A stretch of DNA of 64,000 nt from positions 2,486,966 to 2,550,965 of the forward strand of contig CP070695.1 of assembly GCA_020353515.1 (NCBI GenBank), in the 5' to 3' direction. Under the pieces are notes generated by a model. That model saw only the letters and a list, made by a program, of their open reading frames with translations, ran no database searches and was not told the origin of the DNA. A program made the position numbers and the translations under genes. This stretch comes from Candidatus Heimdallarchaeota archaeon. GTDB lineage: Archaea; Asgardarchaeota; Heimdallarchaeia; Hodarchaeales; Hodarchaeaceae. This document shows, in pieces, positions 29,599-50,819 of the stretch (its first letter is position 1; each line of letters starts with the position of its first letter).

Positions 29599-30261
29599 GT
29601 GGGATTAAGACACACGACTAGGGAAACTAGATATTTGATCGTTCTTAAAATTGTACTTATTGGTGATGGTGGGGTCGGTAAAACGGCCATTCGTGAATCT
29701 TACCTTGGACATGGTTTTGAATCCCAATATGTGATGACTATTGGTGCCGATTTTGCCATGCAAGATGATATCGTAAATGGAAGGAAATTAAGATATCAAA
29801 TTTGGGATTTAGCAGGTCAAGACCGATTTGACGGTGTCAGAAATGTCTATTACAGGGGAGCAAAAGGTTCACTTCTCATTTTTGATGTGACGAGACCTGA
29901 TTCTTATTTCAATATCCCAAAATGGGTAAAGGAACTCTGGGGATTTAATGGACAAGGTAAAATACCTATTGTCTTAGTAGCTAACAAAATAGACTTACGA
30001 GAGTTGTCAGATGGGGAAATAATAAGTCCTGATCAAGGGAGAAAGATGGCTGAGAAACTCACCAAGCTGACCTCAAAAGAAGGATTTGCTTGTCACTACA
30101 TTGAAACATCTGCTAAAACAGGAGTTAAGATCCAAGACGCATTCTCTCTGCTTAGTGAGAATGTTATGAATCTGGCAGAAAAACGGGGCCTACTTAAACT
30201 GAAATCAAGTCGTCCGAAGTCATCTTTGGAACGACAATCAATAGTTAAACAATTACAGTAG
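29599..30261 (+). CDS. Rab-like small GTPase with basic C-terminal tail
   Basis: GDGGVGKT, TIGADF, RYQIWDLAGQDRF, YYRGA, NKID, ETSAK. True start is probably the TTG at 29635. Confidence 0.95.
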   Translation: MGLRHTTRETRYLIVLKIVLIGDGGVGKTAIRESYLGHGFESQYVMTIGADFAMQDDIVNGRKLRYQIWDLAGQDRFDGVRNVYYRGAKGSLLIFDVTRPDSYFNIPKWVKELWGFNGQGKIPIVLVANKIDLRELSDGEIISPDQGRKMAEKLTKLTSKEGFACHYIETSAKTGVKIQDAFSLLSENVMNLAEKRGLLKLKSSRPKSSLERQSIVKQLQ

Positions 30262-32120: not shown

Positions 32121-35100
32121 TCAAGATCTCCTAGGTCTCTGTACCAAGTAAAAAACGATAGAAATCGCGAATAGAATAACAATCCCAAAAGGTACATTCC
32201 ATGAAGGAAGATGGTCTAGATTGAAATCGGAGCTTTCTCTGGTAGTCGAAGTTTCAGAATCTATCCAAGATTGCCACCACTCAAAATCATTAAAATAATA
32301 TTCTCGACTTTCATATATCCACCCTGAGTCTGAAAAACAAAGATTATCGGCTGAATCATAGATATTAATAGACTGGATACGAGCGCGAAGAAAGTTATAT
32401 TGATCACTGAAATAAAAAGATGTTGTATCAATGGGTACAATAATGGAAATATCGACACCTTCCTCGAGATATTCGATGATAGAAGTATACATGTAATGAC
32501 TATTCCAATTATAATCATCCCACATGGTCAGTTCAATCTCTACGTCTATTCTATAGGTGTCTGTTTCGGTAACATTTATTCCAATGTAAAAACGCAGCTC
32601 CTCAAATTCACCGTCACTATCAGTACTCTCACCTCTATCAATGAAGGTATTTGTTAATAAGATAGGAGGAGTATCAAACAAGTTTCTATTGTATGTTTTC
32701 GTGATGTATGAAGTTACGGAGCGGTCGAGTAGGTTATAGAACCAATTGTAAATTCTCACATTCTCAATAATAAAGTATGTGCTATCGAAAAGAGGGTATA
32801 AAAAAATTGTATCAATAGAAAGAGATATGTTTTCAATTCCTACTTGAAAAAATACGTCAAAGGATTGCCACTCTGAGTACTCCCAGTGACGTGAACGTAT
32901 ATAAAATTCAATGTGGTATTGTCCTGATCGAGTAACATTTGTCTCTAACTCAAACGTTAACGAATCATAGTTGCCATTAGAATCTGTGTCAGCCCCAGAA
33001 TCCCAAAAATTTCCTGTTAATATAACCCCTGGACGATCAAATTCCGAAAATTTGTATTGGCGAGTAATATACGGACGATTAACATGATCGACTTCTCCCC
33101 ATGTGTTCAAAACTGATATATGATCAATAATAAACGCAGTATCTAATCTTAGGGAGTAAGGGAGGGTGGTATATAACTGAACTGATATATTATAAATACC
33201 CCAATCATACACATCAGTTTCAGAAGCCCCCCAGAAGTTTGAATCCCAGACAGGGATATAGGGTACTACTGAAATCTCAATCCTGTAAGAATCCTCTTGA
33301 GTTATGTTAACTTCTACATCAATGATTATTTCATCAAACTTCCCATCCTCATCTGTATCTATTCCTCTATCCCAATAGTTACCTGTTAGAAAGGCAGGGG
33401 GAGGATTGAACTCTGTATAGCTAAAAGCTCTTGAAATATAATTAAGATACCCCTCATCAACAACATTCCAATAGTAATATTCTTCGCGGATGATTCTACT
33501 GTCGGTTAACATAAAAGAGCTATTCACCCGAAAACGGTAGATAATAGACCCGTCAATCTCAAAGGAAATCCAATGTAATCCTTCATTCAGAAATAGGTAC
33601 TGATTATCCCAGAAATCAAATCCACCTTCAACTTGTTCGAGTCGAATCTCTATTCTATAATTACCTGAACTAGAGACATTAATCTCTATATCAAACGCGA
33701 GTACTTCAAATTTACTATTGGATTCATAGTCAATTCCTCTTGTCCAGAGGTTCCCTGTAAACCAAGCATCAGGAAGATCAAATTCTGTATAATTATAGAT
33801 ACGAGTAGTATAAGGAAGGAAGACTTCATCTAATGTATTATAATTCTCATCTCTAATTCGTAAGTGGTCAATTGCAAAGGTACTATTAGTACGATACGAA
33901 TGGACTAACATTGTATCAAAAGAAAGGGTGATATTATGTATTCCCCTAATCCAATAGTCACTATACTCTGTGTATTGATCCCAATATCCCTGATCTAGAT
34001 CAGGAAGAAATAATCTCATATAAAGAGTATAGCTCCCAGTACTTGTAATATTTACCTCAAGACCAATTTGAATTTGATCAAATTTCCCGTCAGAATCAGA
34101 ATCCAATCCAGAATCCCAGAAGTTACCTGTTGCGAAAGCTCGTGGGATATCGAATTCAGTATAATTATATGCACGGGTAGTATATGCGTAGGAGGCTTCC
34201 TCCATCAGACCATTATCCTCATTTCTAATCCGTACGTATTCAACTTCAAAGGAAATGCTATTATTACGAAGCGAATATACTAAGCTAGCGTCAAAAATCA
34301 AGGACACATTATGGAAACCCTCATTCCAATAGGCACCATGGTTTGCCCAATTACTCCAACCTACACGATCATTATTTGATGCTATTAAATGCATATTTAG
34401 CCAGTAATTACCTGTGAGAGTGATATTAACCTCAGTTTTTATTACTAATTGGTCAAATTTCCCATCAAAATCAGTATCAACTCCCCAATCCCAGTAATTG
34501 CCTGTTAAAAATTTACGAGAAGTTACGTGGATTTCTACCGAGTAAGAATTAATAGTTTGTAGACCGATCAAAAATTGCATGTCAATTCCGTAGAATTGGA
34601 ATCTCACACTTACATTAAGAGGACCATCAACATGATCCTCTGGAATATCTAACCTTATAACAATTGAAGTGTCCTCTGGTGTTAAGAATTCCCCCCAGTT
34701 TATAACTTGACCATCCGCGAATGGTGTTGAGGAGTCAAGGTTCATTGCCAGATTACAGTATCCAGGATCTTTGATTTCGACTGTAAATTCAAAAATAATG
34801 TCATCAAATACCCCATCATTGTCAGTATCGTTTCCATAGTCAGATATCCCCGTTATTTTTGCATTTGGTACTTCGAAAGCACTTGCATCATAATCCTGAG
34901 ATGTTTTGTAAGAAAAAAGCATTTGCAAATCTTCGATACCATACCACCAATAATGTCGAAAGGTTCCAACCCAAACGTAATAGGAGCCATTTGTACCGAT
35001 TTGATTAATAGCTTGACCTGAGAAGGAGAGGAGAATCTCATTCCCGATATCCCAGCGGTAAAGGATAGAAATCCCCAATAAATTCCCCTCACTGTCATTT

Positions 35101-35393
35101 AAGACGCCATAAACACCGAACTCACGATCTGTTGATTTAGGGATGCCCAAATAGATGATCAAACGGTCATAATAGCCATTACGATCGTCATCAACAGGAT
35201 AATCAGTCCAAGAACTATTGTCAGGTAGAAACTCAGTACTGGACTGACTAACTAAAGAGGAAATTTCTGATACATTCCCTGTGGTCTTAGATATACTCCC
35301 TTCCATTTGATAAGGATCACTCAAACTTCTTAAATTCAGCCCTAGTATAAAAAATAGACCAAGTACAACTCCTATCCGTTTAAGACTGGCCAT
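32121..35393 (-). CDS. Cell-surface glycoprotein with 8 tandem ~120 aa DxDxDG-containing repeats and a C-terminal TM anchor
   Basis: Signal peptide; repeats of the form TGNxWDxGxDxDxDGKFD...EVNIT...YxTRxYxYxEFDxP; S/T linker, TM, RPRRS. Confidence 0.9.
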   Translation of the reverse strand: MASLKRIGVVLGLFFILGLNLRSLSDPYQMEGSISKTTGNVSEISSLVSQSSTEFLPDNSSWTDYPVDDDRNGYYDRLIIYLGIPKSTDREFGVYGVLNDSEGNLLGISILYRWDIGNEILLSFSGQAINQIGTNGSYYVWVGTFRHYWWYGIEDLQMLFSYKTSQDYDASAFEVPNAKITGISDYGNDTDNDGVFDDIIFEFTVEIKDPGYCNLAMNLDSSTPFADGQVINWGEFLTPEDTSIVIRLDIPEDHVDGPLNVSVRFQFYGIDMQFLIGLQTINSYSVEIHVTSRKFLTGNYWDWGVDTDFDGKFDQLVIKTEVNITLTGNYWLNMHLIASNNDRVGWSNWANHGAYWNEGFHNVSLIFDASLVYSLRNNSISFEVEYVRIRNEDNGLMEEASYAYTTRAYNYTEFDIPRAFATGNFWDSGLDSDSDGKFDQIQIGLEVNITSTGSYTLYMRLFLPDLDQGYWDQYTEYSDYWIRGIHNITLSFDTMLVHSYRTNSTFAIDHLRIRDENYNTLDEVFLPYTTRIYNYTEFDLPDAWFTGNLWTRGIDYESNSKFEVLAFDIEINVSSSGNYRIEIRLEQVEGGFDFWDNQYLFLNEGLHWISFEIDGSIIYRFRVNSSFMLTDSRIIREEYYYWNVVDEGYLNYISRAFSYTEFNPPPAFLTGNYWDRGIDTDEDGKFDEIIIDVEVNITQEDSYRIEISVVPYIPVWDSNFWGASETDVYDWGIYNISVQLYTTLPYSLRLDTAFIIDHISVLNTWGEVDHVNRPYITRQYKFSEFDRPGVILTGNFWDSGADTDSNGNYDSLTFELETNVTRSGQYHIEFYIRSRHWEYSEWQSFDVFFQVGIENISLSIDTIFLYPLFDSTYFIIENVRIYNWFYNLLDRSVTSYITKTYNRNLFDTPPILLTNTFIDRGESTDSDGEFEELRFYIGINVTETDTYRIDVEIELTMWDDYNWNSHYMYTSIIEYLEEGVDISIIVPIDTTSFYFSDQYNFLRARIQSINIYDSADNLCFSDSGWIYESREYYFNDFEWWQSWIDSETSTTRESSDFNLDHLPSWNVPFGIVILFAISIVFYLVQRPRRS

Positions 35394-35641: not shown

Positions 35642-36700
35642 ATGAATTTTACTCGTACTAACTATGATAAATCCGATATGGTGTTATTTGGGGGAATAGT
35701 CTTCTCAGCTATATTTACTCTAGTGATATGGATATCAGGTTTTGCATTAGATCGGTTTATTCTCGAACCAGATCAAGGTCCAGCTTGGTATTATTGGCAG
35801 TTACCCAATCCAGTTCTTATAAACCAGTTAATTCTTTGGGTATTGTATTTAGCTCATCAATTGACCGTTTGGGGACTTATTTATTATGGGTATCAACAAT
35901 ATAAGACAACAGGTAAGAAACCTACTACAAATCTAACTACTTATAACATTTTAATAATCATCGCTAACGTTTTTTTCATTTTTTTACACCTTATCGAAAC
36001 TCAATTGTTCTATGATGGATTAGCTCAAGATGTGCCCATTTGGACTAGTCAAGGATCAGTTATCATTATGCTCGCAGTAATGCTAATACTTGAAAACAAA
36101 CGAAGAGGATATGTGTTTGGAAAGCAAGTTGGGAAACCAATTACTAAAGAAGTTGTTGAGTTCTTCCGATTTGGACACATGTACATTTTCGCTTGGGCAC
36201 TTGTTTATACATTTTGGTTCCATCCCATGGATAATGATCCTCAGTTATTAACAGGCTTCTTCTATATGTTTTTACTCTTCACGCAATTATCTGTAGCATT
36301 TACAAAAAGTCATTTGAATCGAAAGTGGACTGCATTATTAGAAGGATTTGTAGCATTTCATGCAGTTGTAGTAGCTATCAATAACACCTTAAGTTTTGGT
36401 AGCAGCGATATGTGGCCAATGTTTTTGAGTGGCTTTCTCTTTATGGTGGTCGCGACTTATATTTATGGGATTAGGCTAAAGAAAAGAACCATCTTAACCA
36501 TCTCATTTGTCTATATAATTTTCCTAATTTGGATTTATATCCCTGTCCCCTTAGGTTATGGACGTGATATTACTTATCTCTTTCGATTAGAAGCATTGTG
36601 GATTCCAATTATTCTCTATTTACTTGGATTGCTCTTTGCAACGATTATTTTTACCATTCAAAAAGTGAAAAAGGGAAGAAAAATCGAAAGTGTGTCGTAA
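35642..36700 (+). CDS. Conserved-looking ~10-TM membrane protein, unknown function
   Basis: Polytopic, with WYYWQL, AHQ, LHL.ETQLFYDGLAQDVP, WFHP motifs. Confidence 0.75.
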   Translation: MNFTRTNYDKSDMVLFGGIVFSAIFTLVIWISGFALDRFILEPDQGPAWYYWQLPNPVLINQLILWVLYLAHQLTVWGLIYYGYQQYKTTGKKPTTNLTTYNILIIIANVFFIFLHLIETQLFYDGLAQDVPIWTSQGSVIIMLAVMLILENKRRGYVFGKQVGKPITKEVVEFFRFGHMYIFAWALVYTFWFHPMDNDPQLLTGFFYMFLLFTQLSVAFTKSHLNRKWTALLEGFVAFHAVVVAINNTLSFGSSDMWPMFLSGFLFMVVATYIYGIRLKKRTILTISFVYIIFLIWIYIPVPLGYGRDITYLFRLEALWIPIILYLLGLLFATIIFTIQKVKKGRKIESVS

Positions 36701-36732: not shown

Positions 36733-37443
36733 TTAATTAGTGGTTAAATCGATCAAACATTTCCGTCTTTCCGTAAGGATACCTTCAAGAATTTCTCGAG
36801 TGATCTTTTTCGATGTTTTTACATTATTAGGCATATTATAATAGCGATCTAGATCAAGAGGAGGACCAAAATAAATTCTTACAGGAGTTTGGAAGTTTAA
36901 GCGGAAAAATTTTCCTACAGGAATGATGTTATTCGTTCCATACACGAAGACAGGCACAACTTTCGTTTGAGGGCCTGCTAATTTAGCAATCCAGCCAGCA
37001 CCAACTTTGATTTTATTAATTTGAAATCTTCCTGTTCTTGACCTCCCACCTTCTGGATAAATTCCAACTGATTCACCATTCTTTAACAAATTGAGGGAGA
37101 TACGAATGAATTTTTCTCGTTCTGCTGGCCCTCGTCCGACAGGAAAAGCCAATTCATACTTCGTCCAACGAAACATGATTTTTTTCATGAAATCCGCTGC
37201 TCCTGTAAAACGAATAGCACGTTTAACAGGAAACGCCGCCACAGCTGTAAAAACAGAGTCAACATGACTCAAATGATTGGAAGTGAGCAATGTGGGTACT
37301 CCTTCAATGGGTAAGTTTTCTTTACCATACACCTTAAACGGAATCGCCCAAAAAAGTAATCTAGCTAAATTCAATAGGAAATAGTGGATAAATCGTCTCC
37401 GAAATCCAAGTTTCTTTCGTATATTATAGGGCTCCACTATCAA
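36733..37443 (-). CDS. Lysophospholipid acyltransferase (PlsC/LPLAT family)
   Basis: Catalytic NHLSHVD (HX4D), YPEGGRS, VVPV. Confidence 0.9.
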   Translation of the reverse strand: MIVEPYNIRKKLGFRRRFIHYFLLNLARLLFWAIPFKVYGKENLPIEGVPTLLTSNHLSHVDSVFTAVAAFPVKRAIRFTGAADFMKKIMFRWTKYELAFPVGRGPAEREKFIRISLNLLKNGESVGIYPEGGRSRTGRFQINKIKVGAGWIAKLAGPQTKVVPVFVYGTNNIIPVGKFFRLNFQTPVRIYFGPPLDLDRYYNMPNNVKTSKKITREILEGILTERRKCLIDLTTN

Positions 37444-37584: not shown

Positions 37585-38958
37585 TTAGATGGTTTTAAAC
37601 ATCGTTTTCGCTTTTTCACGCATGATCTTATGGTCTACAATTGGATATGGATAATCCTCTAAGTCTTTTGGATGTTTTTGATAGAGATTGTGGATTATTT
37701 TAGGATCGTAACCTCGTAATTCAGGAATGTATTGCTTTATATAGTCACATTGTGGATCAAACTTTTTTTGTTGTAACCAAGGGTTAAAAATTCTAAAATA
37801 GGGCACTGGATCACAACCTGTACTCGCTGCCCACTGCCAATTGCCATTATTTACTGAAATATCATAATCCACTAATTTTTCTTTGAAATATTTTTCTCCC
37901 AACTGCCAATTAATTAATAGATCTTTTGTAAGGAAGGATGCGACAATCATCCTTACTCGGTTATGCATCCAACCAGTGGCATTTAGTTGCCTCATTCCTG
38001 CATCAACAATAGGAAATCCAGTTTTCCCTTCACACCAGGCTTGAAATAGTCCCTTATCATTAGTCCAGTCAAGTTTGTCATATTTTGGTCGAAAAGATCC
38101 ATTAAACACATGAGGAAAATGAAATCCAATGTAGATGTAGAAATCTCGCCAATAAAGCTGCCTTAAAAGGGCATAATTGCCAGATTGTTTAATAGCATGA
38201 TAGACTTCACGAATAGATACTGTTCCAAATTTAAGATGAGCTGATAGATGTGTGGTTCCCGTGATTGCAGGAAAATCCCGTTGTTCCTGGTAATTTTTAT
38301 GATTTTGAATCTGATCAAGAAGTTCCAATCCTTTTGTTCTTCCTCCTTTAACCCAGATGTTTGGATTGTAATAATTTAGAATTTCCCTTAATTGATCCAT
38401 TGAAATTGTATCGAATAACTCGTCGTTATAATAGGTATTTTTTGGTGCTTTTACAGGTTCATTGACTAAAAAGATCTGAGATTTTTTAAAAAAGGGAGTA
38501 AATATACTGTATGGAGTTCTATCACCTTTTTTAACAACTTCGGGTTCATTCAGTAATAAATCTGCGGTTATGATAAGCTTTGTGCCAGTATTACTGCAAA
38601 TTCTCCGAATTTTTGTGTCTCGCCTGTGTGAATATGGGGTATAATCACGATTCATTATCAATCTATCAATACCTAGTGCTTCTCTATTTAATAAATCCTT
38701 GATTATGATCTCTGGTTTATCGTGGTAGATAAATAATCTAGAATTATTCATGTTGAATTTATGAAGAAGATCAAGCACTGAATCCTTCAAAAACTGTTTA
38801 GCGTTAAAACTAAGGTTTTTATTCTTGATTAGATATTTATCTAAAATAAAAATAGGAATAACTTTCTCAGATGAATTAAGTGCATGTATTAGTCCAGAAT
38901 TATCTTCGAGCCTTAGATCTCGTCTAAATACAAATAAAGAGATCCCATTTCTTTTCAT
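37585..38958 (-). CDS. phrB: Deoxyribodipyrimidine (CPD) photolyase
   Basis: FRRDLRLEDN, TTHLSAHLKFG, RQLYWRDF, GKTGFPIVDAGMRQL..TGWMHNRVRM, NNGNWQW, FRIFNP. Confidence 0.95.
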   Translation of the reverse strand: MKRNGISLFVFRRDLRLEDNSGLIHALNSSEKVIPIFILDKYLIKNKNLSFNAKQFLKDSVLDLLHKFNMNNSRLFIYHDKPEIIIKDLLNREALGIDRLIMNRDYTPYSHRRDTKIRRICSNTGTKLIITADLLLNEPEVVKKGDRTPYSIFTPFFKKSQIFLVNEPVKAPKNTYYNDELFDTISMDQLREILNYYNPNIWVKGGRTKGLELLDQIQNHKNYQEQRDFPAITGTTHLSAHLKFGTVSIREVYHAIKQSGNYALLRQLYWRDFYIYIGFHFPHVFNGSFRPKYDKLDWTNDKGLFQAWCEGKTGFPIVDAGMRQLNATGWMHNRVRMIVASFLTKDLLINWQLGEKYFKEKLVDYDISVNNGNWQWAASTGCDPVPYFRIFNPWLQQKKFDPQCDYIKQYIPELRGYDPKIIHNLYQKHPKDLEDYPYPIVDHKIMREKAKTMFKTI

Positions 38959-38964
38959 CTTAAA

Positions 38965-39864
38965 TCACTCATTATCTAGTAACACTCTTATCGCTTTTAG
39001 AGCACTTTGTTCCTTGTCTCGAATTTCTAACATGATATCGAAATTCATTGCTTTGGTACTTTGAATAAATGCCCGAAATCTATTAAGATCAATTGAATTA
39101 GCATGCCTCCCTAGTTTTGCATTGGGTTGATTTGAACTCCAATCTAACATCAAAATTCCGTCTTTTGTTTCTGTCCATGTCTCCTGTGCTAGTTGGAGAG
39201 CTTGGACAACAGTTTCGTTGTTGTTTTTAATTGAATGATGAAACACATCAAAGACAACAGGAATATCAATTTCTTTATGGATAGTCAGACAATTCTGCAG
39301 ATCAAATAATCGATCATCATTCTCAATAACTAATCTCTTTTGAATATTGTCTGGTAATCTCAAATAATTTTTAACAAATCTCTCCATGGCTGCAGTTTTA
39401 TCCCCATATACCCCACCTACATGTAATTGAACCTTTGCTGTTGTATCAAGACCCATTCTGTCAAGAACTAGTGTATCATAGAGTAACTCTTGTATGGATT
39501 TGTTAACAACTTCTTCTTTGGGTGAATTAATGATTGTGTACTGCCCAGGATGCATAGAAATCCTAAGATCATGTTTTCTAATATAGGCCCCAATATTTTG
39601 GAGCTCGTGCTGAAAAAAGTCCAAAATCTCCTCAAGTGGTAGTGAAACTGGATGAGATGCAAATGGTATGAAATCAGCAATCCTATAGAAGAGTAAATGA
39701 TTTTCTTGATTGAATTGAAGAGTCTTTTTAATACATGTCAAATTCGATTTCACTGTTGAAAGAAGTTTTTCTCTATTGTAGGATGATAAGCGAATGTTTT
39801 TGTCTGGTTTACATCCTGTGGATGAAAAAGCATTTCCTACATAACCTAATTTCAAAATATTCAC
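38965..39864 (-). CDS. uvsE: UV damage endonuclease UvsE/UVDE
   Basis: PFASHP, RISMHPGQY, LHVGGVYGDK, LVIENDD, VFDVFHH, MLEI.DKE; ends 6 bp before the photolyase start. Confidence 0.95.
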   Translation of the reverse strand: MNILKLGYVGNAFSSTGCKPDKNIRLSSYNREKLLSTVKSNLTCIKKTLQFNQENHLLFYRIADFIPFASHPVSLPLEEILDFFQHELQNIGAYIRKHDLRISMHPGQYTIINSPKEEVVNKSIQELLYDTLVLDRMGLDTTAKVQLHVGGVYGDKTAAMERFVKNYLRLPDNIQKRLVIENDDRLFDLQNCLTIHKEIDIPVVFDVFHHSIKNNNETVVQALQLAQETWTETKDGILMLDWSSNQPNAKLGRHANSIDLNRFRAFIQSTKAMNFDIMLEIRDKEQSALKAIRVLLDNE

Positions 39865-39915: not shown

Positions 39916-40338
39916 TTACTGTTGAATAATAAGTCCTAGAATCGTTATTACTATGGCTACAACCACACCAATGAAAATTGATTGCAAAGAGATTATTATG
40001 GCTTTATTCCGGTCTTTATTCCGCTCTATTTCATCCTCAATCTTTATTGTCGTTCCAAGATGAACTGAAACATTAGCAACGGAAGAAAATCCATATGCAG
40101 CACAAAATTTTTGCCTCGCTTGAATGAAGCCAATTGCTGCCATGGTTCCAGGGAAAATAAAAAGAAATCCTAGTAGTGGGGTGAGATTCAAAAAGAAAAC
40201 ACTAGATATGTATATTAGAAATCCAATACCTATTATTGCTAAACCAACAAAGCCTATCCTTTTCCGTTGAGTAATTTCTGCACTGCCTATATTACATCTT
40301 CCTGCGACGTATTCAGTATTTGAGGTCAAAGTTCTCAC
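39916..40338 (-). CDS. Small 3-TM membrane protein with two Cys motifs
   Basis: YVAGRCNIG..EI..R and GFIQARQKFCAAYG; lies between heliorhodopsin and uvsE. Confidence 0.75.
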   Translation of the reverse strand: MRTLTSNTEYVAGRCNIGSAEITQRKRIGFVGLAIIGIGFLIYISSVFFLNLTPLLGFLFIFPGTMAAIGFIQARQKFCAAYGFSSVANVSVHLGTTIKIEDEIERNKDRNKAIIISLQSIFIGVVVAIVITILGLIIQQ

Positions 40339-40511: not shown

Positions 40512-41339
40512 CTAGACAAAAATTAATCCAGCGAACACAAGCCAAGCAAGAGCTGATTTGGCTACCAAACTTAATATCTGGTAACCTCGTTCTCCAAAAA
40601 GATAGTCTTTCCATGGACCGATTTTCTTGTACTGAAGAAACATGTTAATCGCAAAACTGTTAAAGAAAAGGAAGTACATAACTACTGCGATATAGACAAA
40701 AGTTGGAATAGCATCGCCAACACCGGTATCAAAACTTAGAAATGTGTCAACTATGACAATCCAAGGAACAATGCCAGCAATCCATCCTAACCAATAGGGT
40801 AACCAGCTAGTTTTTTCAGTGTATTGGTTAATTCTTTCCATAAATAAACCAAACATGTTCATTAAGAAATTTAGAACAAAAATCAAAGCTATGATCCAAA
40901 AATCAAGTATTCCAAACGCTAAAGAAATAAAAATGATCATTACCGAAGAACTGAAAGAATACTCCCACCAACGTATTGGATTCATCTTTTTCTTTAGATT
41001 ATCCACATATGAATTGTTTAAAGGGAAGGCGATAAGGAAATGCGCAAGAGCAGACATAAGCAAAAAACTTGCTAATAAAATACCCGCTACGTTCTCAAAT
41101 GTGAAAAATACGCTTGGATCAGGAGCAAAAATCGGCTTTGTTCCAGTTAATTGTTTTATTACCAATCTAGATTTGTAAATGTCTACAGAAAAGTTTTTTA
41201 TCTCGTCTATAAACAAACTAAGTGTAAATATCAATACACTTTGAACTAGATGCAAAATAGCCATAGCAATGTTGAATTTTTTCAGATGACTCATACTTAT
41301 AGGTGAAGTTTCACCATCTACGAATGAAAATTCTGTCAT
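40512..41339 (-). CDS. heR: Heliorhodopsin
   Basis: 7 TM; LHLVQ (TM1 His), SALAH (TM2 His), NPIRWWEYSFSSSVM (Glu counterion), YQILSLVAKSALAW (retinal Lys in SxxxK); GGTGAGGT SD. Confidence 0.97.
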   Translation of the reverse strand: MTEFSFVDGETSPISMSHLKKFNIAMAILHLVQSVLIFTLSLFIDEIKNFSVDIYKSRLVIKQLTGTKPIFAPDPSVFFTFENVAGILLASFLLMSALAHFLIAFPLNNSYVDNLKKKMNPIRWWEYSFSSSVMIIFISLAFGILDFWIIALIFVLNFLMNMFGLFMERINQYTEKTSWLPYWLGWIAGIVPWIVIVDTFLSFDTGVGDAIPTFVYIAVVMYFLFFNSFAINMFLQYKKIGPWKDYLFGERGYQILSLVAKSALAWLVFAGLIFV

Positions 41340-41536: not shown

Positions 41537-42862
41537 TTAAGTACGCTGGTTAAACCCACACCGAGTACAGACTGTTAAACCCTCTCGAATCTGAAATCCA
41601 CATTGAATACATGGGTTCTCTTTAAGTAAAGACCGTGTTTTTAAAAATAAAATTCCTGCAATTAAAAAACCAATGATAAGAATAAATGCACCCAAATAAT
41701 AAGGATATGCTGCATCTAGCTCGAAAAGAGCTGTTCCTACTAAAGGACCTCCTATTCTCATAAAAGATCCAATTCCTTGGTTTAAACCTAAAATTACTCC
41801 TGAATTTTCTTTGGGAGTTTCTTTAGATAAAAATGCTCCTATGGTAGGATTAGAAATTGAAGATCCAAACGCAAGCGGAATGACCCAGAGGCTCATCTCG
41901 AAGAGAGAAGTGACAGTACTCAAGCCTATGAAGCCAATAATTAAGAAAAATATTCCTGCAGTAATGAGAGTTGTATCAGAGAAGCGATTTGATAAGGGGA
42001 TAATCAGGCCTGCCTGAGTAATTATGACAACTAATCCCACTACAAAAAATACAAGACCTGCAAGAGATTCATTTAAACCAAAGCGGACTTTTCCCAGTAA
42101 GGCCAAAGTCGCTTGCATTTTTGAAAACGCTAATGAAACACCAGCAAATAAAATTATCGTTAATAAGACGTTAGGGTTTTGCAAAAGAGTTTCACGTAAG
42201 CTGACTTTTACGCTAGCTCCTTGAGAGATTATTTCTTTTCTTCTTCCCCGCATTTCCTCAGTTAATGACTCAGGTAAGTATTTAATTGCTGCAAGGAAGT
42301 TAACTATGGCAATGACAGTCGCAAATACAGCTGGAAGTGCGTACCCGCCAATAAAAGACAGAACTCCACCGATTCCAGGTCCTAATGCGAATCCAAGTCC
42401 AAATGCTGCACCTAATAATCCAAAACCTTTTGCACGATCTTGCCCAGAAGTTGTATCAGCAATATAGGCTTGACTAGTAGGTAAGGTCGCTGCAGTAAAC
42501 GCTCCTCCAACTAAGCGAGACATAAGAATTATGGTTAATGAATCAATGAAGATTAATGCTGCTAAACTCAGCATACCTAATCCGAGTACTGTCCCAAATA
42601 ATCCTGCTAGAATGACAGGCCGACGCCCCCATCGATCTGAGATCCACCCCCAGACAGGGGCAAAAGTAAAACTCATTAATGAATAAACACTAGCCAGAAT
42701 GCCATATATAAATGGTGTTGCTCCCAATTCTAACGTCCAAAACGGAAGTAGCGGGATTATAATTCCAAATTCTAGTAAATCGATGAATACTGCTAGGAAT
42801 AAAACACCTATTGGACCAATAGATAGGTGTGAAGGAGGAATTTTGTTCTCTGTAATTTCCAT
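41537..42862 (-). CDS. MFS efflux transporter (TetA/DHA1-like) with C-terminal Zn ribbon
   Basis: Motif A GWISDRWGRRP, motif C GFALGPGIGG, C-terminal CIQC-x10-CTRC. Confidence 0.9.
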   Translation of the reverse strand: MEITENKIPPSHLSIGPIGVLFLAVFIDLLEFGIIIPLLPFWTLELGATPFIYGILASVYSLMSFTFAPVWGWISDRWGRRPVILAGLFGTVLGLGMLSLAALIFIDSLTIILMSRLVGGAFTAATLPTSQAYIADTTSGQDRAKGFGLLGAAFGLGFALGPGIGGVLSFIGGYALPAVFATVIAIVNFLAAIKYLPESLTEEMRGRRKEIISQGASVKVSLRETLLQNPNVLLTIILFAGVSLAFSKMQATLALLGKVRFGLNESLAGLVFFVVGLVVIITQAGLIIPLSNRFSDTTLITAGIFFLIIGFIGLSTVTSLFEMSLWVIPLAFGSSISNPTIGAFLSKETPKENSGVILGLNQGIGSFMRIGGPLVGTALFELDAAYPYYLGAFILIIGFLIAGILFLKTRSLLKENPCIQCGFQIREGLTVCTRCGFNQRT

Positions 42863-43032: not shown

Positions 43033-43500
43033 TTAATCTTCGATTAACGCATACTTTTCAGGAGAACCCCATATTTCGACTTTATTGAACTTATCCTTCT
43101 TTGATTGGAAATGTATCCATAACTTTGTTTGGTCAAGGAATGGATTAGCATGGAATAACGCCTGATCACCATATCGAAACGCTTCTAACACTAAGGGCAA
43201 TTCTTGACGAAAAATTCTATCACGAAACTTCGATGTGCCAATTCCCTTACTGATTTGACAATAGACATGAAGTGAATATGTTTCTTCAGTTTTCAACCAT
43301 TCTGCCAAGACCTCATCACGCATTATTCGTATTTGCCATCCTTTTAGTTGTTTTTTGTTAAATTCATGAGCAATAGTTAAAAATAAATCTCCTGTTCGAT
43401 CTGAATGTGTTAAAGTATAGCATCGGGGAACTAGGGGGGAATCAACAGTTGTGGGGGATAAAAAAGTCACATGTAGCTTTTTAGGATCTAAACGACTCAT
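43033..43500 (-). CDS. Stay-Green (SGR) family Mg-dechelatase homolog
   Basis: PRCYTLTHSDRTGDLFL, RDEVLAEW, LHVYC, IFRQELPLVLEAFRYGD, E.WG; GGAGG SD. Confidence 0.92.
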   Translation of the reverse strand: MSRLDPKKLHVTFLSPTTVDSPLVPRCYTLTHSDRTGDLFLTIAHEFNKKQLKGWQIRIMRDEVLAEWLKTEETYSLHVYCQISKGIGTSKFRDRIFRQELPLVLEAFRYGDQALFHANPFLDQTKLWIHFQSKKDKFNKVEIWGSPEKYALIED

Positions 43501-43550
43501 ATCTAAACCTCCTTCATTTTACTTAATGGAACGGATAGTTTACGATAATT

Positions 43551-44501
43551 TTAATGCAATTCCTTTTCCTTTGCCATTATCTCCATACCACTGAAGCTTC
43601 CCACTCCATCAAATTCAATTTTCTTCTTTAAATCGATAAATCTTAGATTAATTGTTGATGTTAAACTTTCAAGGACTTTTCCAGTCATTTTTCCGTTAAT
43701 AGGGCTCCTTAATTTAGAGGTTTTTGCTTGAGTAGCGTCAATCTCTATCCTTTGGTTCTTTTTCACTAATTTAAATGAGACCTGATTCTCATTAATAGTC
43801 AAGTCCTTCAATTTTGCTCTATTATAAGTTGAAAAGAGATTTAATCTGTTTTTGTACAAGAATCCCGCCAAATATCCTGTGAATGATCTTCCTAAATATG
43901 GAATTCTAGCAATAGATGCCATAAATGAGACCCGTTCTTCGGAAAAATGATTAGATTGCATCCAAACATATCCACTAGGGAATGATCTTCCCCAATCCTT
44001 TTCTATATATCCTCTCCCGTGATTAAAAGAAATATCATCTCCGTTAATACTTAGATTTCCATAAATCTCGTGATCAAAGCTTAATACAGCGTGAGAACAT
44101 TCCATACGAGGTAAAAAAGCAAAAGGGCCCATGGCTCCTGGGGAAAGGAATTTTATTGGCCAAGGCACTTGATCTATGAAAATAAGTTCCCCCTTAACCA
44201 CTTGACCTTGTACGTTCAGATCTAGTTTTATTTTATCAGTAGAGAAGTAATTATTTGCAATAGTCACTTCAAATTTATCTTTCTTATATTGAAATTTATT
44301 CAGATTAAATTTATTATATTGTAAATCCCCCGATATTCCATTGAAGATTTGAATGAAGGCTTGACTAGGATGAGCGGAGGAAAAACCTGGAATAATTGCT
44401 ATCGCCACTTTTCTATTATAATCAACCAGCTTATAATACCAGCCTTCAAATCGAAACTTACCGATTCCATGGCAAATTTCAGGCTTCCAAATATTTCCCA
44501 A
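43551..44501 (-). CDS. Tocopherol cyclase family protein
   Basis: FEGWYYK, MGPFAFLPRMECSH, GRGYIEKDWGRSFPSGYVWMQSN. Confidence 0.88.
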   Translation of the reverse strand: MGNIWKPEICHGIGKFRFEGWYYKLVDYNRKVAIAIIPGFSSAHPSQAFIQIFNGISGDLQYNKFNLNKFQYKKDKFEVTIANNYFSTDKIKLDLNVQGQVVKGELIFIDQVPWPIKFLSPGAMGPFAFLPRMECSHAVLSFDHEIYGNLSINGDDISFNHGRGYIEKDWGRSFPSGYVWMQSNHFSEERVSFMASIARIPYLGRSFTGYLAGFLYKNRLNLFSTYNRAKLKDLTINENQVSFKLVKKNQRIEIDATQAKTSKLRSPINGKMTGKVLESLTSTINLRFIDLKKKIEFDGVGSFSGMEIMAKEKELH

Positions 44502-44715: not shown

Positions 44716-45591
44716 CTATTTGAATGGATTTGGAATTAATATAGGAGTCCTGTTTTTGTATTCCTCGTAATCTTCTTGACCACCCCACTTGTCATCAGCT
44801 CTTTTTTCAAGTAAAGGAACACCACTTACCTTAGTTAAGAGTAATGTCACAAAAACAGGAGAAATCAATGTTAGCCATCTCCAACCTTGAAGTGTTGGAA
44901 GTGCAATTATTGCGATACCAATCCAGAGGAGAATTTCTCCAAAATAATTTGGATGTCGTGAGATTGACCACAATCCAGTAGTAATGAATTTTTCTTTATT
45001 CTCAGGGACAGATCTGAACTTACTTTTCTGATAATCTGCAATAGCTTCAAAACCAAAGCCTATGATCCACACTAAAAGACCTACTAAACCAATAAGACCA
45101 AAATCCGTTCTTTGTTCTACTGTTATCGCTGCTAATGCCGCTGCTAATGTAAAGCTTACCCATAAACCCTGAATAGTCCAAGTTAAAAAAAAACGTGTAC
45201 CGGATTGTTTGATCTCCTTGAAGCGTTTATCTTCCCCCTCTTTTAAAATTCGTCGGAACAAGTATGTCCCAAGACGAAGCGCCCAGATTGAGACCAATAC
45301 CATTAGTAAAATGGAGCGTGTATCAATTTCAGGACTCAAGGCAACTGCTAAGAATATAACAGTTATGTAGGTTAATGAACCAGTTAGATCAAAGAACTTC
45401 TCAGTCCTTTTGATATATGCAGGTATGAATGCAATCCATTGAATTATAAAGGCAAGAGCAACACCGATTGCAAATACTGGTATTCCACCAAGAACAGTCA
45501 CGCCTCCCTGACTTCCAGCGAGAGTAAGACATATAGCAATGAATAAAATTATGATTATAGCAACCAAGGACTGAATATCTTTCTCATTCAT
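44716..45591 (-). CDS. DUF1295 / steroid 5-alpha-reductase-like membrane protein
   Basis: EKFFDLTGS, WALRLG.YLF.RI...GEDKRF, EAIADYQK, GLWSISRHPNYFGE, SGVPLLE. Confidence 0.92.
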   Translation of the reverse strand: MNEKDIQSLVAIIIILFIAICLTLAGSQGGVTVLGGIPVFAIGVALAFIIQWIAFIPAYIKRTEKFFDLTGSLTYITVIFLAVALSPEIDTRSILLMVLVSIWALRLGTYLFRRILKEGEDKRFKEIKQSGTRFFLTWTIQGLWVSFTLAAALAAITVEQRTDFGLIGLVGLLVWIIGFGFEAIADYQKSKFRSVPENKEKFITTGLWSISRHPNYFGEILLWIGIAIIALPTLQGWRWLTLISPVFVTLLLTKVSGVPLLEKRADDKWGGQEDYEEYKNRTPILIPNPFK

Positions 45592-45722: not shown

Positions 45723-47540
45723 TCATCCAGTGATCGGTACCCAATCTAGACTTTGATGCTCATAATACTGCTTATAGAGTTGGCCATATTTTCCTCCTTG
45801 AGCAAGCAAAGCCTCATGAGTCCCCTCTTCAATAATTTGCCCCTTTTCCATCACAATAATTCGGTCTGCATTCAGAATAGTGGAAAGCCTATGGGCAATA
45901 ATGATTGAGGTCCGATTCTCAAGGAGGACTTCAAGTGCCTCTTGAATGATCGCTTCGGTGTAAGCATCCACCGATGACGTTGCTTCATCTAGAATAAGAA
46001 TTTTTGGATCCGTTAGAAGCGCCCGAGCAAAGCTAATTAATTGTTTTTGACCTACAGAAAGCCCTCCTCCTCTTTCCCCCACTTGTGTTTGAATTCCATC
46101 ATGTAAATATTCGATAAGTTCTTCTGCATGGACAGATCGAATGGCTTTCCATAGATCCTCTTCTGATGCATCTCGTCTACCATACCGAATATTCTCCTCA
46201 ATTGTCCCGGAAAAGAGAAAAACATCTTGTTGCACCATTCCGAGGTTCCGTCTATAAGAATCCAGTTTTAAATCTCTGATATCGATTCCATCAATCTTAA
46301 TGGATCCACCTTGAAATTCATAAAAACGAGCTAGAAGGTTAACTAAGCTGGATTTTCCCGCGCCTGTGTGACCGACTACTGCAAGTTTCTCTCCTTTTGC
46401 TATTTTTAAACTGAACCCTTTAAAGACCCATTCACCATCGTTTCTGTAACTAAAGTCAACATTTTCAAAAACAATCTCCCCCTCCAAGGCATCAACCCCG
46501 CGAAGCACTGGATTCTGCTTAACATTAGGTTTGGAATCTAATATATCTAGAATTCGTTCATATGCCGCCATCCCAGCACTCAGTTGAGGAAAAAAAGTAG
46601 CAAGAATCATGATAGGGCGAAAAAAACGCTGAATATACAATATATACATTAAAATAATTGCAGTGGTTGATACTCCCTGGAGTACAAGCTGACCACCTAG
46701 ATACACTATTGTTACAAGTATTAAGGCGGTAATTGTTTCAAGGATTGCTCTCCAGACATGTGTCACTGCAGTCAATCGATAAGCTGTTCCAAAATACTCT
46801 TTATTTGTCTCATGAAACTGTTCAGAAACTGTAGCTTCTTGCCCATAACTTTTGCAGACTTGTATTCCTTCGATTGATTCAACCATGGCATTGTTGATAT
46901 TCCCTATTGACTTTCGATAAGCTCGACTCACGATTCTAGCAAGCTTCCGCAGAGAAAACATTAACACAAAGAGGAAAGGAACACCCGCTAGAGTAATCAG
47001 AGCTAAGGTTGGATTCAACCAGAAAAGAATTGCGAAGGTCAAGGCACTCACAAGTAAATTACCCATAGTGTCTGCTAAAAGGATCGTAGTGTTTCCAAAG
47101 TCTAAAGCATCATTTGATACTCTTGAATTCAGACTTCCACTCAGATGTTTGTCGTAAAAACTCATATCTTGCTCCTGTAACTTATCAAAGATATCCATAC
47201 GAAGATTTTCTAGAAAATATGGCATGAAATTCCCAATCTCCCTACGACGGAGACTAAACATGACCCAAATTGCAGCGGATAAAATGAGATATACAACACC
47301 AGCACCTAGAACTATTGAAAAATCACGATCTGGTTTTTCGAAAACATCAACGGCAAAACCAACAATGAGTGGAATAATTATATCAGCAACAGTAGAAATT
47401 AGAATGAAAAGAGAAATAAGCGTGACACTCTTCTTGAACGGAACAATTCGGTGAGCATATCGAGTGAATAACTCTCGATCTGAATACTCTCGCTCTCGTT
47501 TTTCACTGAATACTCCGCGATAGAGTCCCATATTAATCAC
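45723..47540 (-). CDS. Heterodimeric ABC exporter subunit (TMD-NBD; consensus Walker B, degenerate signature)
   Basis: GHTGAGKS, LSVGQKQ, LDEATS, IAHRL. Confidence 0.92.
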   Translation of the reverse strand: MINMGLYRGVFSEKREREYSDRELFTRYAHRIVPFKKSVTLISLFILISTVADIIIPLIVGFAVDVFEKPDRDFSIVLGAGVVYLILSAAIWVMFSLRRREIGNFMPYFLENLRMDIFDKLQEQDMSFYDKHLSGSLNSRVSNDALDFGNTTILLADTMGNLLVSALTFAILFWLNPTLALITLAGVPFLFVLMFSLRKLARIVSRAYRKSIGNINNAMVESIEGIQVCKSYGQEATVSEQFHETNKEYFGTAYRLTAVTHVWRAILETITALILVTIVYLGGQLVLQGVSTTAIILMYILYIQRFFRPIMILATFFPQLSAGMAAYERILDILDSKPNVKQNPVLRGVDALEGEIVFENVDFSYRNDGEWVFKGFSLKIAKGEKLAVVGHTGAGKSSLVNLLARFYEFQGGSIKIDGIDIRDLKLDSYRRNLGMVQQDVFLFSGTIEENIRYGRRDASEEDLWKAIRSVHAEELIEYLHDGIQTQVGERGGGLSVGQKQLISFARALLTDPKILILDEATSSVDAYTEAIIQEALEVLLENRTSIIIAHRLSTILNADRIIVMEKGQIIEEGTHEALLAQGGKYGQLYKQYYEHQSLDWVPITG

Positions 47541-47543
47541 ACA

Positions 47544-49316
47544 TTAATTTTTCACTATTAATTCTGGTAAAATAAGATGTTTACCAAAGATCCGTCTGTA
47601 ATCTTCTGAACTCTGTAGTAATTCATTGTGACTCCCCTCAGCGACATTTCTTCCCCGTTTAAGTACAATAATTTTGTCAGAAGTTCGGATTGTATGCAAT
47701 CGATGAGTGATGACTAGAGTTGTTCTATTCCTGATTACATTCTCCATTGCTTGTGTTATCTTTTCCTCTGTCTCGCTATCTACTGCAGATACGGAATCGT
47801 CAAGAATAAGAATTTCAGGGTCAGTCAAGAATGCACGAGCAATAGCAACACGCTGTTTTTCTCCACCAGAGAGACGTGTTCCTCTCTCTCCGACAATGGT
47901 GTTATATTCTTCAGGAAACTCCAAAGCGAATTCTTCAACTTGAGCAAGCTTTGCTGCATCCATAATTGCTTCATGGGTTGCACTCGGTCTACCAAACGCG
48001 ATATTATCACTTATCGTACGCGAAAAAAGATAGATATCTTGCTCTATATACCCAATGTGCCGTCTTAATTGATCAAGAGGATAATTTCGAATATCTATCC
48101 CATCTAATAAGATGGTTCCCTCTTGGGGTTCATAAAGACGTAAAAGCAACTTCACCAGAGTCGTTTTACCGCATCCCGTTGGACCTACAAGAGCTACTCG
48201 TTGATATGGCTCGATTTTGAAAGATAGATTCTTTAAAATCGGAGTATTTTTTGTTCCATCATCTCCATAAGCAAAAGTCACATCTCTAAACTCAATTGTA
48301 CCTTTAAAAGTATCTGGCCAAGTGAGAGCACTTTCTTGTTGTTCTTCCTCTTCCAATGACAAACTTGTATATAATCGTGAACATGCAGCAAAACCACTCA
48401 TCATATCATTAGTAGCCCAAAAGATCATATTAGTAGGATCAATGAGAGTGATTAAGAGTAAATTAGCTGCAATCAATGCCCCTATCGTTAACGTACCCTC
48501 GAATACAAATACACAACTCATAAGAAATGTCACGCCTATTGCTAAATACAGTACTAATAATGGATAAAATCTTGCCTGAACTTTTGTCTCTCCAATCCGA
48601 TTGTCCCGAAAGCCGATTACTGCTATGTGAAATTTTTCCCGTTCCAATTCTTCTGCAGTGAATGATCGTACAATCGCAACACCACTTATGCTGTCCTGTA
48701 ACACTACAGCCACATTTGAGTGGGTAACCATTCGGCCAGCAGCCCATGGAGCAATTTTCTTTCGGTAATCTAATATAAAAATCATGTAGAAAATAATGAA
48801 GGGGGAACAAATCAAGGCGAGTCTGAGATCAAGGGTTACTATCAATAGAAATGCTGCCATTATAACTTGAAAGAACGGATATAGGTAAAAGGCCCCATGA
48901 GAAATCATAGTATTGATAATGCGTAAATCATTAGTTGCTAGAGCTTGGAGATCACCTGTGCGTGCTTTATCATGATACCGTAATGGTTTATATTGAAGGG
49001 TGTCGAAGAATTCTTGCCGCATATTTTGTTCAGTCTTTAACCCTAAATAATGCCCGATCATCATTGTTATATAATCCATAGCATTCCGAGTAACAAAAAC
49101 TGCAAGTGCAACGGCGAGTAACAGTACTAAATTAGCTAAATCACGGGTTACAAGAGTTGTATCTATGATATATCCAATAACAATTGGAATGATGACCCTT
49201 GAGAAGGTAACAATAATAATACCAACAAGAACACCCACCACCAAGGATTTTTGCCTAGCAAGATGGTATAAAAACCACTTCCTATAGCTCGATATCTTTG
49301 TTAAATCCAAACTCAT
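47544..49316 (-). CDS. Heterodimeric ABC exporter subunit (TMD-NBD; degenerate Walker B)
   Basis: GPTGCGKT, LSGGEKQR, LDDSVS; ends 3 bp from its partner. Confidence 0.92.
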   Translation of the reverse strand: MSLDLTKISSYRKWFLYHLARQKSLVVGVLVGIIIVTFSRVIIPIVIGYIIDTTLVTRDLANLVLLLAVALAVFVTRNAMDYITMMIGHYLGLKTEQNMRQEFFDTLQYKPLRYHDKARTGDLQALATNDLRIINTMISHGAFYLYPFFQVIMAAFLLIVTLDLRLALICSPFIIFYMIFILDYRKKIAPWAAGRMVTHSNVAVVLQDSISGVAIVRSFTAEELEREKFHIAVIGFRDNRIGETKVQARFYPLLVLYLAIGVTFLMSCVFVFEGTLTIGALIAANLLLITLIDPTNMIFWATNDMMSGFAACSRLYTSLSLEEEEQQESALTWPDTFKGTIEFRDVTFAYGDDGTKNTPILKNLSFKIEPYQRVALVGPTGCGKTTLVKLLLRLYEPQEGTILLDGIDIRNYPLDQLRRHIGYIEQDIYLFSRTISDNIAFGRPSATHEAIMDAAKLAQVEEFALEFPEEYNTIVGERGTRLSGGEKQRVAIARAFLTDPEILILDDSVSAVDSETEEKITQAMENVIRNRTTLVITHRLHTIRTSDKIIVLKRGRNVAEGSHNELLQSSEDYRRIFGKHLILPELIVKN

Positions 49317-49958: not shown

Positions 49959-50537
49959 CTAGCGAACTGTTAACAAGGGAGCCCTTTTATGAATTTCTAT
50001 GAACTTCAGAATATTAACCCCAAGTAATGAGAAAGCCTCGGCGATATTTACTTCAGTTTTAGCAGAAGTCTCAATGAAATGACATTGAAATCCATCAGCT
50101 TCGGTCAGATTACTAAGATTGTTAGTAAAGGCCCATCCCTGATTACGAGAAATAGGATTATCTGCAATGGCACTCAAATCCATTTTATTTGCGACAACAA
50201 CAATAGGTACACGACCACGTCCATTATTTGTCCATAGCTCGTTAATCCATTTAGGTGTATTATAGAAAGAATCTGGTCGAGTGATATCATACACTAATAA
50301 CCCTCCTACGCAGCCTTTGTAATAAGCTTCCCTGACACCATCAAAGCGGTCTTGACCTGCTAAATCCCAAATTTGATATCGGACTGGAAATCCATTGATG
50401 CTATCATCACGCATTGCGAAATCAGCGCCAACCGTTAGAAAATACTGAGCCTTAAATCCGTTCCCTATATAACGCTCACGAATAGATGTTTTACCGACCC
50501 CACCATCACCAATTAGTGCGATCTTATATACTACCAT
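49959..50537 (-). CDS. Rab-like small GTPase (close paralog of 29599-30261)
   Basis: GDGGVGKT, TVGADF, RYQIWDLAGQDRF, LVYDIT, NKMD, ETSAK. Start moved to MVVYKI (50537, GAGGT SD). Confidence 0.95.
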   Translation of the reverse strand: MVVYKIALIGDGGVGKTSIRERYIGNGFKAQYFLTVGADFAMRDDSINGFPVRYQIWDLAGQDRFDGVREAYYKGCVGGLLVYDITRPDSFYNTPKWINELWTNNGRGRVPIVVVANKMDLSAIADNPISRNQGWAFTNNLSNLTEADGFQCHFIETSAKTEVNIAEAFSLLGVNILKFIEIHKRAPLLTVR

Positions 50538-50819
50538 TCTTAACCTCTCTTCTTCAAGCATCAGATTTTCGTCGGGAAAAAGTAAGATAAGACATGACTT
50601 TTCCCTACAAATGGTTATGAAAACCACACTCTAATAAAGAATTAAGATACTTAAAAGTGACAGTTTCTATTAATAAGTGACTTAATTGATTTTTTGAAGA
50701 TATCTCGTCTGTTCCTCAAGATTATCCTCTAAGGAATGATGGAACCTTATCTATCCTTTCTTCATCATAACGGCTTACCTCGAAATAAAGCTTAATATAA
50801 GGGATATACCTCCTAAAAA

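Follow-up and report, generated by a model that had tools for sequence, protein, structure and literature searches.

A Stay-Green family Mg-dechelatase homolog encoded beside heliorhodopsin and DNA repair genes in an Asgard archaeon

What would a homolog of the plant enzymes that remove magnesium from chlorophyll do in an archaeon that appears unable to make any tetrapyrrole? This question is raised by the open reading frame (ORF) at 43033-43500 (minus strand) of a 64,000-nucleotide stretch of the Candidatus Heimdallarchaeota archaeon genome (GenBank assembly GCA_020353515.1, contig CP070695.1, positions 2,486,966 to 2,550,965), which is called the window below. A first-pass annotation, made from the sequence alone, had read this ORF as a Stay-Green (SGR) protein. 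We found that the gene encodes an SGR family protein with the fold of an active bacterial enzyme, that it lies in an island of genes concerned with light damage, and that it is recurrently paired with heliorhodopsin (HeR) in both archaea and bacteria. The reading that we favour, with moderate confidence and by analogy with the bacterial enzyme, is that the protein removes Mg from exogenous chlorophyll-type photosensitisers within a light-stress response, the exporters encoded nearby handling the product.

The SGR protein and its archaeal host

The ORF starts with ATG, which is preceded at 7 nucleotides by a GGAGG Shine-Dalgarno box (43508-43512, minus strand, read directly from the sequence), and its product is a soluble, bacterial-type homolog of 155 amino acids and about 18 kDa. 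The protein matched the Pfam profile PF12638 (Staygreen) far above chance, with 171.8 bits against a cut-off of 27 and an E value of 1.1e-50, and the match spans positions 2-147 of the 147 of the profile and residues 4-150 of the protein, showing a core domain with no N- or C-terminal extension. No NCBIfam model matched the protein. The motifs on which the first-pass annotation relied are all present in the translation at the residues it had named: R26, C27, Y28, T29, L30, T31, H32, S33 and D34 in the first motif; R61, D62, E63, V64, L65, A66, E67 and W68 in the second; and the further motifs E100-L-P-L-V-L105 and Y110-G-D112.

The only solved relative is AbSGR-h of Anaerolineae bacterium SM23_63 (PDB 7Y5Y_A; PMC8531759, PMC11006732), a 161-residue member of the same Pfam family from a host that is likewise non-photosynthetic, although bacterial rather than Asgard. 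It aligned with residues 1-151 of the archaeal protein (E value of 1.2e-46; about 50% identity), and it has also been treated in Obata 2019 and Dey 2022. The AlphaFold2 model that we built on 42 homologs reached a pLDDT of 88 and a pTM of 0.84, and Foldseek superposed it on 7Y5Y with TM scores of 0.93/0.94 and a root mean square deviation of 1.4 Å over 152 columns at 50% identity, while no other chain of the PDB was found at an E value below 1e-3. All 12 positions mutated in the AbSGR-h study are conserved in the archaeal protein, namely H32, D34, D62, R26, Y28, T29, T31, T36, R61, E63, R95 and D114, the last two of which correspond to R93 and D112 here, since the archaeal protein has lost two residues from the loop that follows residue 86. 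In AbSGR-h, the D34N and D62N proteins were soluble but inactive and H32A kept weak activity; R26D, Y28A, T29A and D114N were insoluble, and T31A, R61A, E63Q and R95A lost the hexamer (PMC8531759). Thus, the residues needed for structure and oligomerisation are kept together with H32, D34 and D62, the proposed catalytic set of AbSGR-h (PMC8531759, PMC11006732), which are numbered identically in both proteins and are invariant in the 42 homologs. The His/Asp/Asp set that the first-pass annotation had named as catalytic agrees with this literature. Across the same alignment the motif positions and the AbSGR-h equivalents are also invariant, and T29 is nearly so. Hence, the ORF is a Stay-Green family protein with the fold of the active Anaerolineae enzyme, and by analogy with AbSGR-h it would be a Mg-dechelatase, as the first-pass annotation had reasonably supposed.

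Plant SGR1, SGR2 and SGRL have the same core Staygreen domain and catalytic Asp/His/Asp residues, and the reaction that they catalyse, in which chlorophyll a or chlorophyllide a loses its Mg, is also the putative reaction of the archaeal protein. However, plant SGRs are longer and carry a chloroplast transit peptide and a C-terminal tail, whereas the archaeal protein consists of the core domain only; it is not a plant SGR in the strict sense.

Could the gene be an artefact of a chimeric assembly, belong to a contaminating bacterium (Chloroflexota) or be a decaying pseudogene? The marker-gene contamination estimate of the genome is 7.4%, and Asgard SGR sequences are nested among Anaerolineae sequences in the tree described below, both of which would favour a contaminant. 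However, the window is part of a single contig of 4.94 Mb, 96% complete by marker genes, that also encodes the archaeal ribosomal protein L31e, 212 kb away from SGR; among 14 control genomes, this family matched only in the four archaeal ones. The GC content is even over the window, and the genes flanking SGR are syntenic with those of several independent Asgard metagenome-assembled genomes (MAGs) at 77-95% identity. A pseudogene is at odds with the intact frame, the ribosome-binding site and the invariant functional residues, and a true pseudogene copy elsewhere in the genome, described below, looks quite different. We therefore rejected these explanations, which are effectively refuted by L31e, synteny, even GC content and the intact frame, and the archaeal origin assumed in the first-pass annotation holds.

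The archaeal small-subunit (SSU) rRNA model, which matched all 14 control genomes, found no match in the 4.94 Mb genome itself, whose rRNA may be interrupted, and no tRNA or Rfam family was found in the window. Because there is no SSU rRNA, tRNA or Rfam match, the host assignment is based on protein markers and synteny. The closest homologs of the SGR, HeR, ABC and DUF1295 proteins come from Asgard MAGs (77-95% identity). SGR loci in Promethearchaeota, Hermodarchaeota or Hodarchaeota MAGs are 71-82% identical, and the nearest SGR relatives (66-85% identical) include NCBI entries of Promethearchaeota or Hermodarchaeota. The window also encodes two GTPases of the Ras family, which is typical of Asgard archaea. 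The host thus belongs to the Asgard archaea, and its genus includes MAGs of Hodarchaeota, Hermodarchaeota or Promethearchaeota.

The first-pass annotation had singled out the SGR homolog for its archaeal host, but such homologs are not unusual. The alignment of Dey 2021 (PMC8531759) already holds three archaeal sequences of the same family, one from Thorarchaeota (SMTZ-45, KXH70069), which are likewise Asgard archaea, and two from Bathyarchaeota/MCG; NCBI entries named 'staygreen family protein' exist for Promethearchaeota, Hermodarchaeota and Thorarchaeota, and a 2026 preprint mentions a homolog in a Sigynarchaeales genome (bioRxiv 10.64898/2026.03.19.712979). The closest named archaeal relatives are 78-82% identical to the present protein. 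Among the 400 genomes of the host phylum that we sampled, 108 (27%) have a Staygreen match, including 12 of 21 from the same genus and 64 of 135 from the family labelled f20, and so do 16 of 301 sampled genomes of the bacterial class that contains the Anaerolineales locus L012. The gene is therefore an ordinary representative of its family, whose occurrence in archaea is not new. We found no analysis of genomic context or activity for the earlier archaeal homologs in the literature; the present copy differs from them in lying on a closed-looking single contig, which settles the question of the host.

The gene island and the pairing of SGR with heliorhodopsin

SGR belongs to a run of 11 co-directional minus-strand genes that encode an ABC exporter pair, a DUF1295 protein, a tocopherol-cyclase-like protein, SGR, an MFS exporter, HeR, a 140-residue membrane protein, the UV damage endonuclease UvdE, a DNA photolyase and a PlsC-type acyltransferase. 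The first-pass annotation had correctly placed SGR directly upstream of the MFS exporter, but it missed the linkage with heliorhodopsin and photolyase, which is the most informative part of the context. The HeR gene (40512-41339, minus strand; Pfam PF18761, E value of 1e-83; NCBIfam HeR, E value of 4e-90) lies 1.7 kb from SGR, and its single match genome-wide makes it the sole heliorhodopsin of the genome.

We compared the proteins of the window with SGR loci by tblastn, covering 30 loci across the host phylum and two Anaerolineales MAGs, together with 13 more loci from the class containing L012. In at least 29 of the 108 SGR-positive Asgard genomes, HeR and SGR share a contig and are no more than 5 kb apart, and in 17 of these the distance is at most 1 kb; since many MAG contigs are short, the count is a minimum. 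Two single-copy genes of a 4 Mb genome would fall within 5 kb of each other by chance with a probability of about 0.25%. The linked genomes belong to three families and show several arrangements, with HeR followed by SGR in the same direction, SGR followed by HeR, or the two genes divergent. Across the sampled phylum, HeR is present in 81/108 SGR-positive versus 51/292 SGR-negative genomes, counts that are descriptive and not a test, since the genomes are related. In our host's own genus, every locus with long enough flanks has HeR no more than 3 kb from SGR; in two of these loci (L008 and L044), HeR immediately precedes SGR in the same orientation, with a gap of about 55 bp, and a PlsC-type acyltransferase gene also adjoins SGR. 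Photolyase, UvdE, the 140-residue protein and DUF1295 are found within 8 kb of SGR in this genus, and one locus (L003) keeps the order ABC-DUF1295-SGR-MFS of the window.

The pairing extends to bacteria. In 6 of the 13 Anaerolineae loci, HeR lies within 5 kb of SGR, in five of them at 57-217 bp, and some Anaerolineae SGR loci also have the ABC pair, DUF1295 or an MFS gene; one of them (L074) shows the order ABC pair-HeR-SGR, and the Anaerolineales locus L012 has a photolyase gene 0.8 kb upstream of SGR and an MFS gene downstream. Overall, many loci of both domains have HeR and SGR in the same orientation with 53-217 bp between them. DUF1295 is near SGR in own-genus loci, in family f7 and in two Anaerolineae loci, and the pairing of SGR with MFS is seen again in L003, in the relic copy described below (L002) and, loosely, in two Anaerolineae loci. 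Family f12 has no HeR at all. In its four loci (L048, L049, L050 and L051), an AhpC/TSA peroxiredoxin gene lies 20-29 bp from SGR in every case with a fasciclin-domain gene nearby, and in three a photolyase gene lies convergently at 18 bp; this setting of SGR is different, but still light- or oxidant-related.

Other recurrent SGR neighbours encode a short-chain dehydrogenase/reductase (SDR), a CMAS/UbiE-like methyltransferase, a flavin amine oxidase and an NmrA-DUF2867 protein. Photolyase, a CFA-synthase homolog, SDR and flavin amine oxidase are core families of the bacterial singlet-oxygen regulon (PMC3546557, PMC5507510). The same families as in the RpoE-ChrR regulon of Rhodobacter and other bacteria thus recur around Asgard and Anaerolineae SGR genes, and both sets fit a response to photosensitised damage; however, there is no sigma/anti-sigma pair here, and the likeness is one of family content, not of demonstrated orthology.

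Heliorhodopsins can bind proteins encoded next to them and regulate these, as shown by AbHeR with glutamine synthetase (PMC9529153), TfHeR with photolyase (PMC9769723) and OcHeR with the OmrDE ABC exporter (PMC11109279); a role as switches in the defence against photo-oxidative stress has also been proposed for them (PMC8612252). Genes of two such published partner classes, a photolyase and a heterodimer-type ABC exporter pair, also lie near the HeR gene of the window. Published surveys of HeR neighbours list photolyase, tocopherol cyclase, AhpC/TSA, ABC, MFS, SDR and DUF1295; Staygreen is not listed in them, supplements included, nor among the ten heliorhodopsin partner groups of PMC11109279, and our literature search found no paper joining heliorhodopsin with staygreen, stay-green or dechelatase. 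Unlike the published partners, SGR is not known to interact physically with HeR, but it is recurrently adjacent to HeR in different lineages, as expected of a heliorhodopsin partner.

We also constructed a quick maximum-likelihood tree of 69 SGR sequences from Asgard archaea and Anaerolineae, with two divergent Anaerolineae paralogs as the root. Anaerolineae sequences branch off at the base as a grade, and a single group (SH-aLRT 92) holds all Asgard sequences and two from Anaerolineales; this group splits into f1+f12+f31 versus f20+f4+f7. The tree of 15 SGR-linked HeR genes shows f1, f20+f7 and Anaerolineae, the same three-way partition as in the SGR tree, and in both trees f7 goes with f20 and not with its class-mate f1. 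This agreement fits a HeR-SGR pair that was inherited or transferred together from a Chloroflexota-like source. The direction of SGR transfer between Chloroflexota and Asgard archaea is tentative, with thin sampling and rooting and a tree that holds no plant, Firmicutes or Bathyarchaeota sequences.

All the other members of the island are on the minus strand as well. Upstream of SGR, the pair of half-size ABC exporters (45723-49316; ABC_membrane and ABC_tran domains in Pfam), 3 bp apart, is followed by the DUF1295 membrane protein of the steroid-reductase/ICMT-like superfamily (44716-45591; PF06966, E value of 6e-69) and by the tocopherol-cyclase-like gene (43551-44501; PF14249, E value of 1.8e-13, covering only the C-terminal two thirds of the profile). 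The latter ends 50 bp upstream of SGR and is probably co-transcribed with it, and it is next to SGR in no other sampled Asgard or Anaerolineae locus. Downstream of SGR by 170 bp is the MFS exporter of the DHA1/Tet-like type (41537-42862; MFS_1, E value of 4.5e-58), whose matches to NCBIfam Tet-type efflux models were far under the cut-offs. Its C-terminus (41537-41620, minus strand) forms a short zinc-ribbon-like tail of two CxxC motifs separated by 11 residues, which is also seen in the relic copy. Beyond HeR are the 140-residue membrane protein (39916-40338), which has no Pfam match but has homologs of 43-54% identity in own-genus loci and is conserved beside the UvdE-photolyase pair, UvdE itself (38965-39864; PF03851, E value of 1.6e-59), the DNA photolyase (37585-38958; PF00875 and PF03441) and, as the last of the co-directional run, the PlsC-type acyltransferase (36733-37443; PF01553, E value of 5e-15).

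The search for operators and repeats across the island gave weak, low-identity repeats only. A perfect palindrome, TTAAATC-N4-GATTTAA, just upstream of the HeR start was dropped as a candidate, since it has 2 matches in the window versus 1.8 expected. Small GTPases of the Ras/Roc family are encoded on either side of the island region, at 29599-30261 (plus strand) and 49959-50627 (minus strand). The ORFs at 32121-35393 (minus strand, 1090 residues) and 35642-36700 (plus strand, 352 residues) had no Pfam match at the thresholds used.

Outside the window, the same genome carries a relic of the SGR-MFS pair (L002:1492-1769, corresponding to about 1543056-1543333 of G000:C1). It retains codons 1-59 of SGR at 76% identity, with the start codon changed to ATA and H32 to Q, and these are joined directly, in another frame, to the last 34 codons of MFS (79% identical, with the same CxxC...CxxC tail); this junction points to the duplication of an SGR-MFS unit and the loss of about 1.6 kb from the copy. 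The relic lies between the gene of a B12-binding-like protein (L002:2-940; B12-binding_2 above and B12-binding below the cut-off, the N-terminus being cut off by the end of the locus) and a flavin amine-oxidase/phytoene-desaturase-like gene (L002:1850-3157), and its surroundings may represent a second light-response island. In family f4, one contig (L045; G019:C19) has several Staygreen matches, among them a second copy that is interrupted by stop codons and lies about 7 kb from the intact gene.

Substrate, proposed function and alternatives

The first-pass annotation had proposed an exogenous substrate, dietary chlorophyll or another metalloporphyrin, and the metabolic setting supports this. 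The genome has no match to PF00490 (ALAD/HemB), PF01379 (porphobilinogen deaminase/HemC) or PF02514 (CobN/Mg-chelatase H), whereas ALAD and HemC, used as positive controls, each matched in 11 of the 14 control genomes. The host thus appears unable to make any tetrapyrrole. Since HemB, HemC and a CobN-type chelatase have no match, any Mg-tetrapyrrole substrate of the archaeal SGR must be exogenous and, in contrast to that of plant SGRs, cannot be endogenous. PF08417 (PaO) and PF07224 (chlorophyllase) also have no match in the genome; therefore, the plant-type steps after dechelation, ring opening included, are lacking, and the product would undergo no further breakdown by known enzymes. A complete SGR-type pathway for chlorophyll a was not found, with PaO and chlorophyllase unmatched and pheophytinase-like hydrolases outside the search. 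Although it looks like a tetrapyrrole auxotroph by its HemB and HemC results, the host encodes a protein with B12-binding domain matches, and it presumably depends on imported corrinoids.

How might the protein work in such a cell? In a lit habitat rich in phototrophs, chlorophylls from neighbours or detritus would enter the cell membrane and act as photosensitisers. As in the proposal for AbSGR-h, D34 of SGR would ligate and destabilise the central Mg2+ of the chlorophyll-type macrocycle, aided by H32 and D62, and two protons would replace the Mg to give the pheophytin or pheophorbide form. This conversion would be part of a light-stress response, in which the product may be exported by the flanking transporters (MFS or ABC), and heliorhodopsin may act as the light sensor or as a regulator.

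Several points weigh against this proposal. Pheophytin and pheophorbide are themselves photosensitisers. Because the demetallated chlorins remain photosensitisers, detoxification would need export or sequestration, for which the neighbouring transporters are the sole indication. In f20, f31 and f4, several SGR loci lack light-related genes within 10 kb, a search for an operator or promoter motif shared across the island gave none, and the HeR/SGR genome counts are not independent, the linkage being partly inherited synteny. Moreover, activity and substrate range are described as varying considerably among SGR homologs (PMC8531759, citing Obata 2019), and according to a recent preprint's account of Obata 2019, the chlorophyll a activity of prokaryotic homologs is promiscuous and the natural substrate may differ (bioRxiv 10.64898/2026.03.19.712979).

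This promiscuity, as cited, leads to the most serious alternative, in which SGR is a heliorhodopsin client whose activity changes upon binding in the light, chlorophyll dechelation being a side activity and the substrate another ligand. The binding and regulation of adjacent-gene products by heliorhodopsins (PMC9529153, PMC9769723, PMC11109279) and the close, co-directional spacing of 53-217 bp in many loci of both domains make such a client plausible. Nevertheless, in the window the MFS gene stands between HeR and SGR, family f12 keeps SGR without any HeR, the conserved residues are exactly those that AbSGR-h needs for Mg-dechelation, and no data here point to an alternative substrate, so we consider this alternative possible but clearly less probable than dechelation of exogenous photosensitisers. 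The tight, recurrent pairing over two domains and the same grouping in the HeR and SGR trees would also suit a different role, in which SGR makes a demetallated chlorin from scavenged chlorophyll and HeR uses it as an accessory antenna or sensitiser with a wider spectral range. There are parallels: in a deep-sea fish, rhodopsin is sensitised to long wavelengths by a bacteriochlorophyll derivative that lacks its metal, and other microbial rhodopsins are known to have carotenoid antennas. However, nothing supports this role directly, 27 of the 108 SGR-positive genomes have SGR without HeR, and neighbours for repair, antioxidant defence and export fit defence better than light harvesting; we regard it as very improbable.

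A nutritional role, with SGR as the first step of chlorophyll catabolism for scavenging carbon, nitrogen, magnesium or phytol, seems just as improbable to us. Plants channel chlorophyll-derived phytol into tocopherol, and a tocopherol-cyclase-like gene lies 50 bp upstream of SGR, but this neighbour is unique to our genome among the sampled loci; an SGR-type chlorophyll pathway has been described in some prokaryotes, including one Sigynarchaeales (Asgard) genome (bioRxiv 10.64898/2026.03.19.712979), but neither PaO nor chlorophyllase has a match in this 96%-complete single-contig genome, and the neighbours of SGR are light-damage genes, not catabolic ones. Taken together, these comparisons leave dechelation of exogenous photosensitisers within a light-stress response as the explanation that we prefer.

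Meaning for the two families and for Asgard archaea

For the role of SGR in non-photosynthetic prokaryotes, the papers that we consulted treat only in vitro activity, structure and evolution, and the functions of heliorhodopsins are largely obscure, with few client proteins known (PMC11109279). In a more daring version of the pairing, to which we give very little credence, HeR and Staygreen would work as a unit and would have passed jointly between Chloroflexota and Asgard archaea, the chlorin serving as a chromophore or sensitiser of HeR or, in a milder form, HeR gating SGR by light; if true, either form would give two orphan families a natural function. As the host appears unable to make tetrapyrroles, SGR would act on a foreign pigment, if on a tetrapyrrole at all. 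The added value of this locus lies in the light-damage island and in the cross-domain pairing of HeR with Staygreen, which provide testable hypotheses for two poorly understood families, and the SGR island is relevant to how Asgard archaea live in sediments and mats that receive light and are rich in phototrophs.

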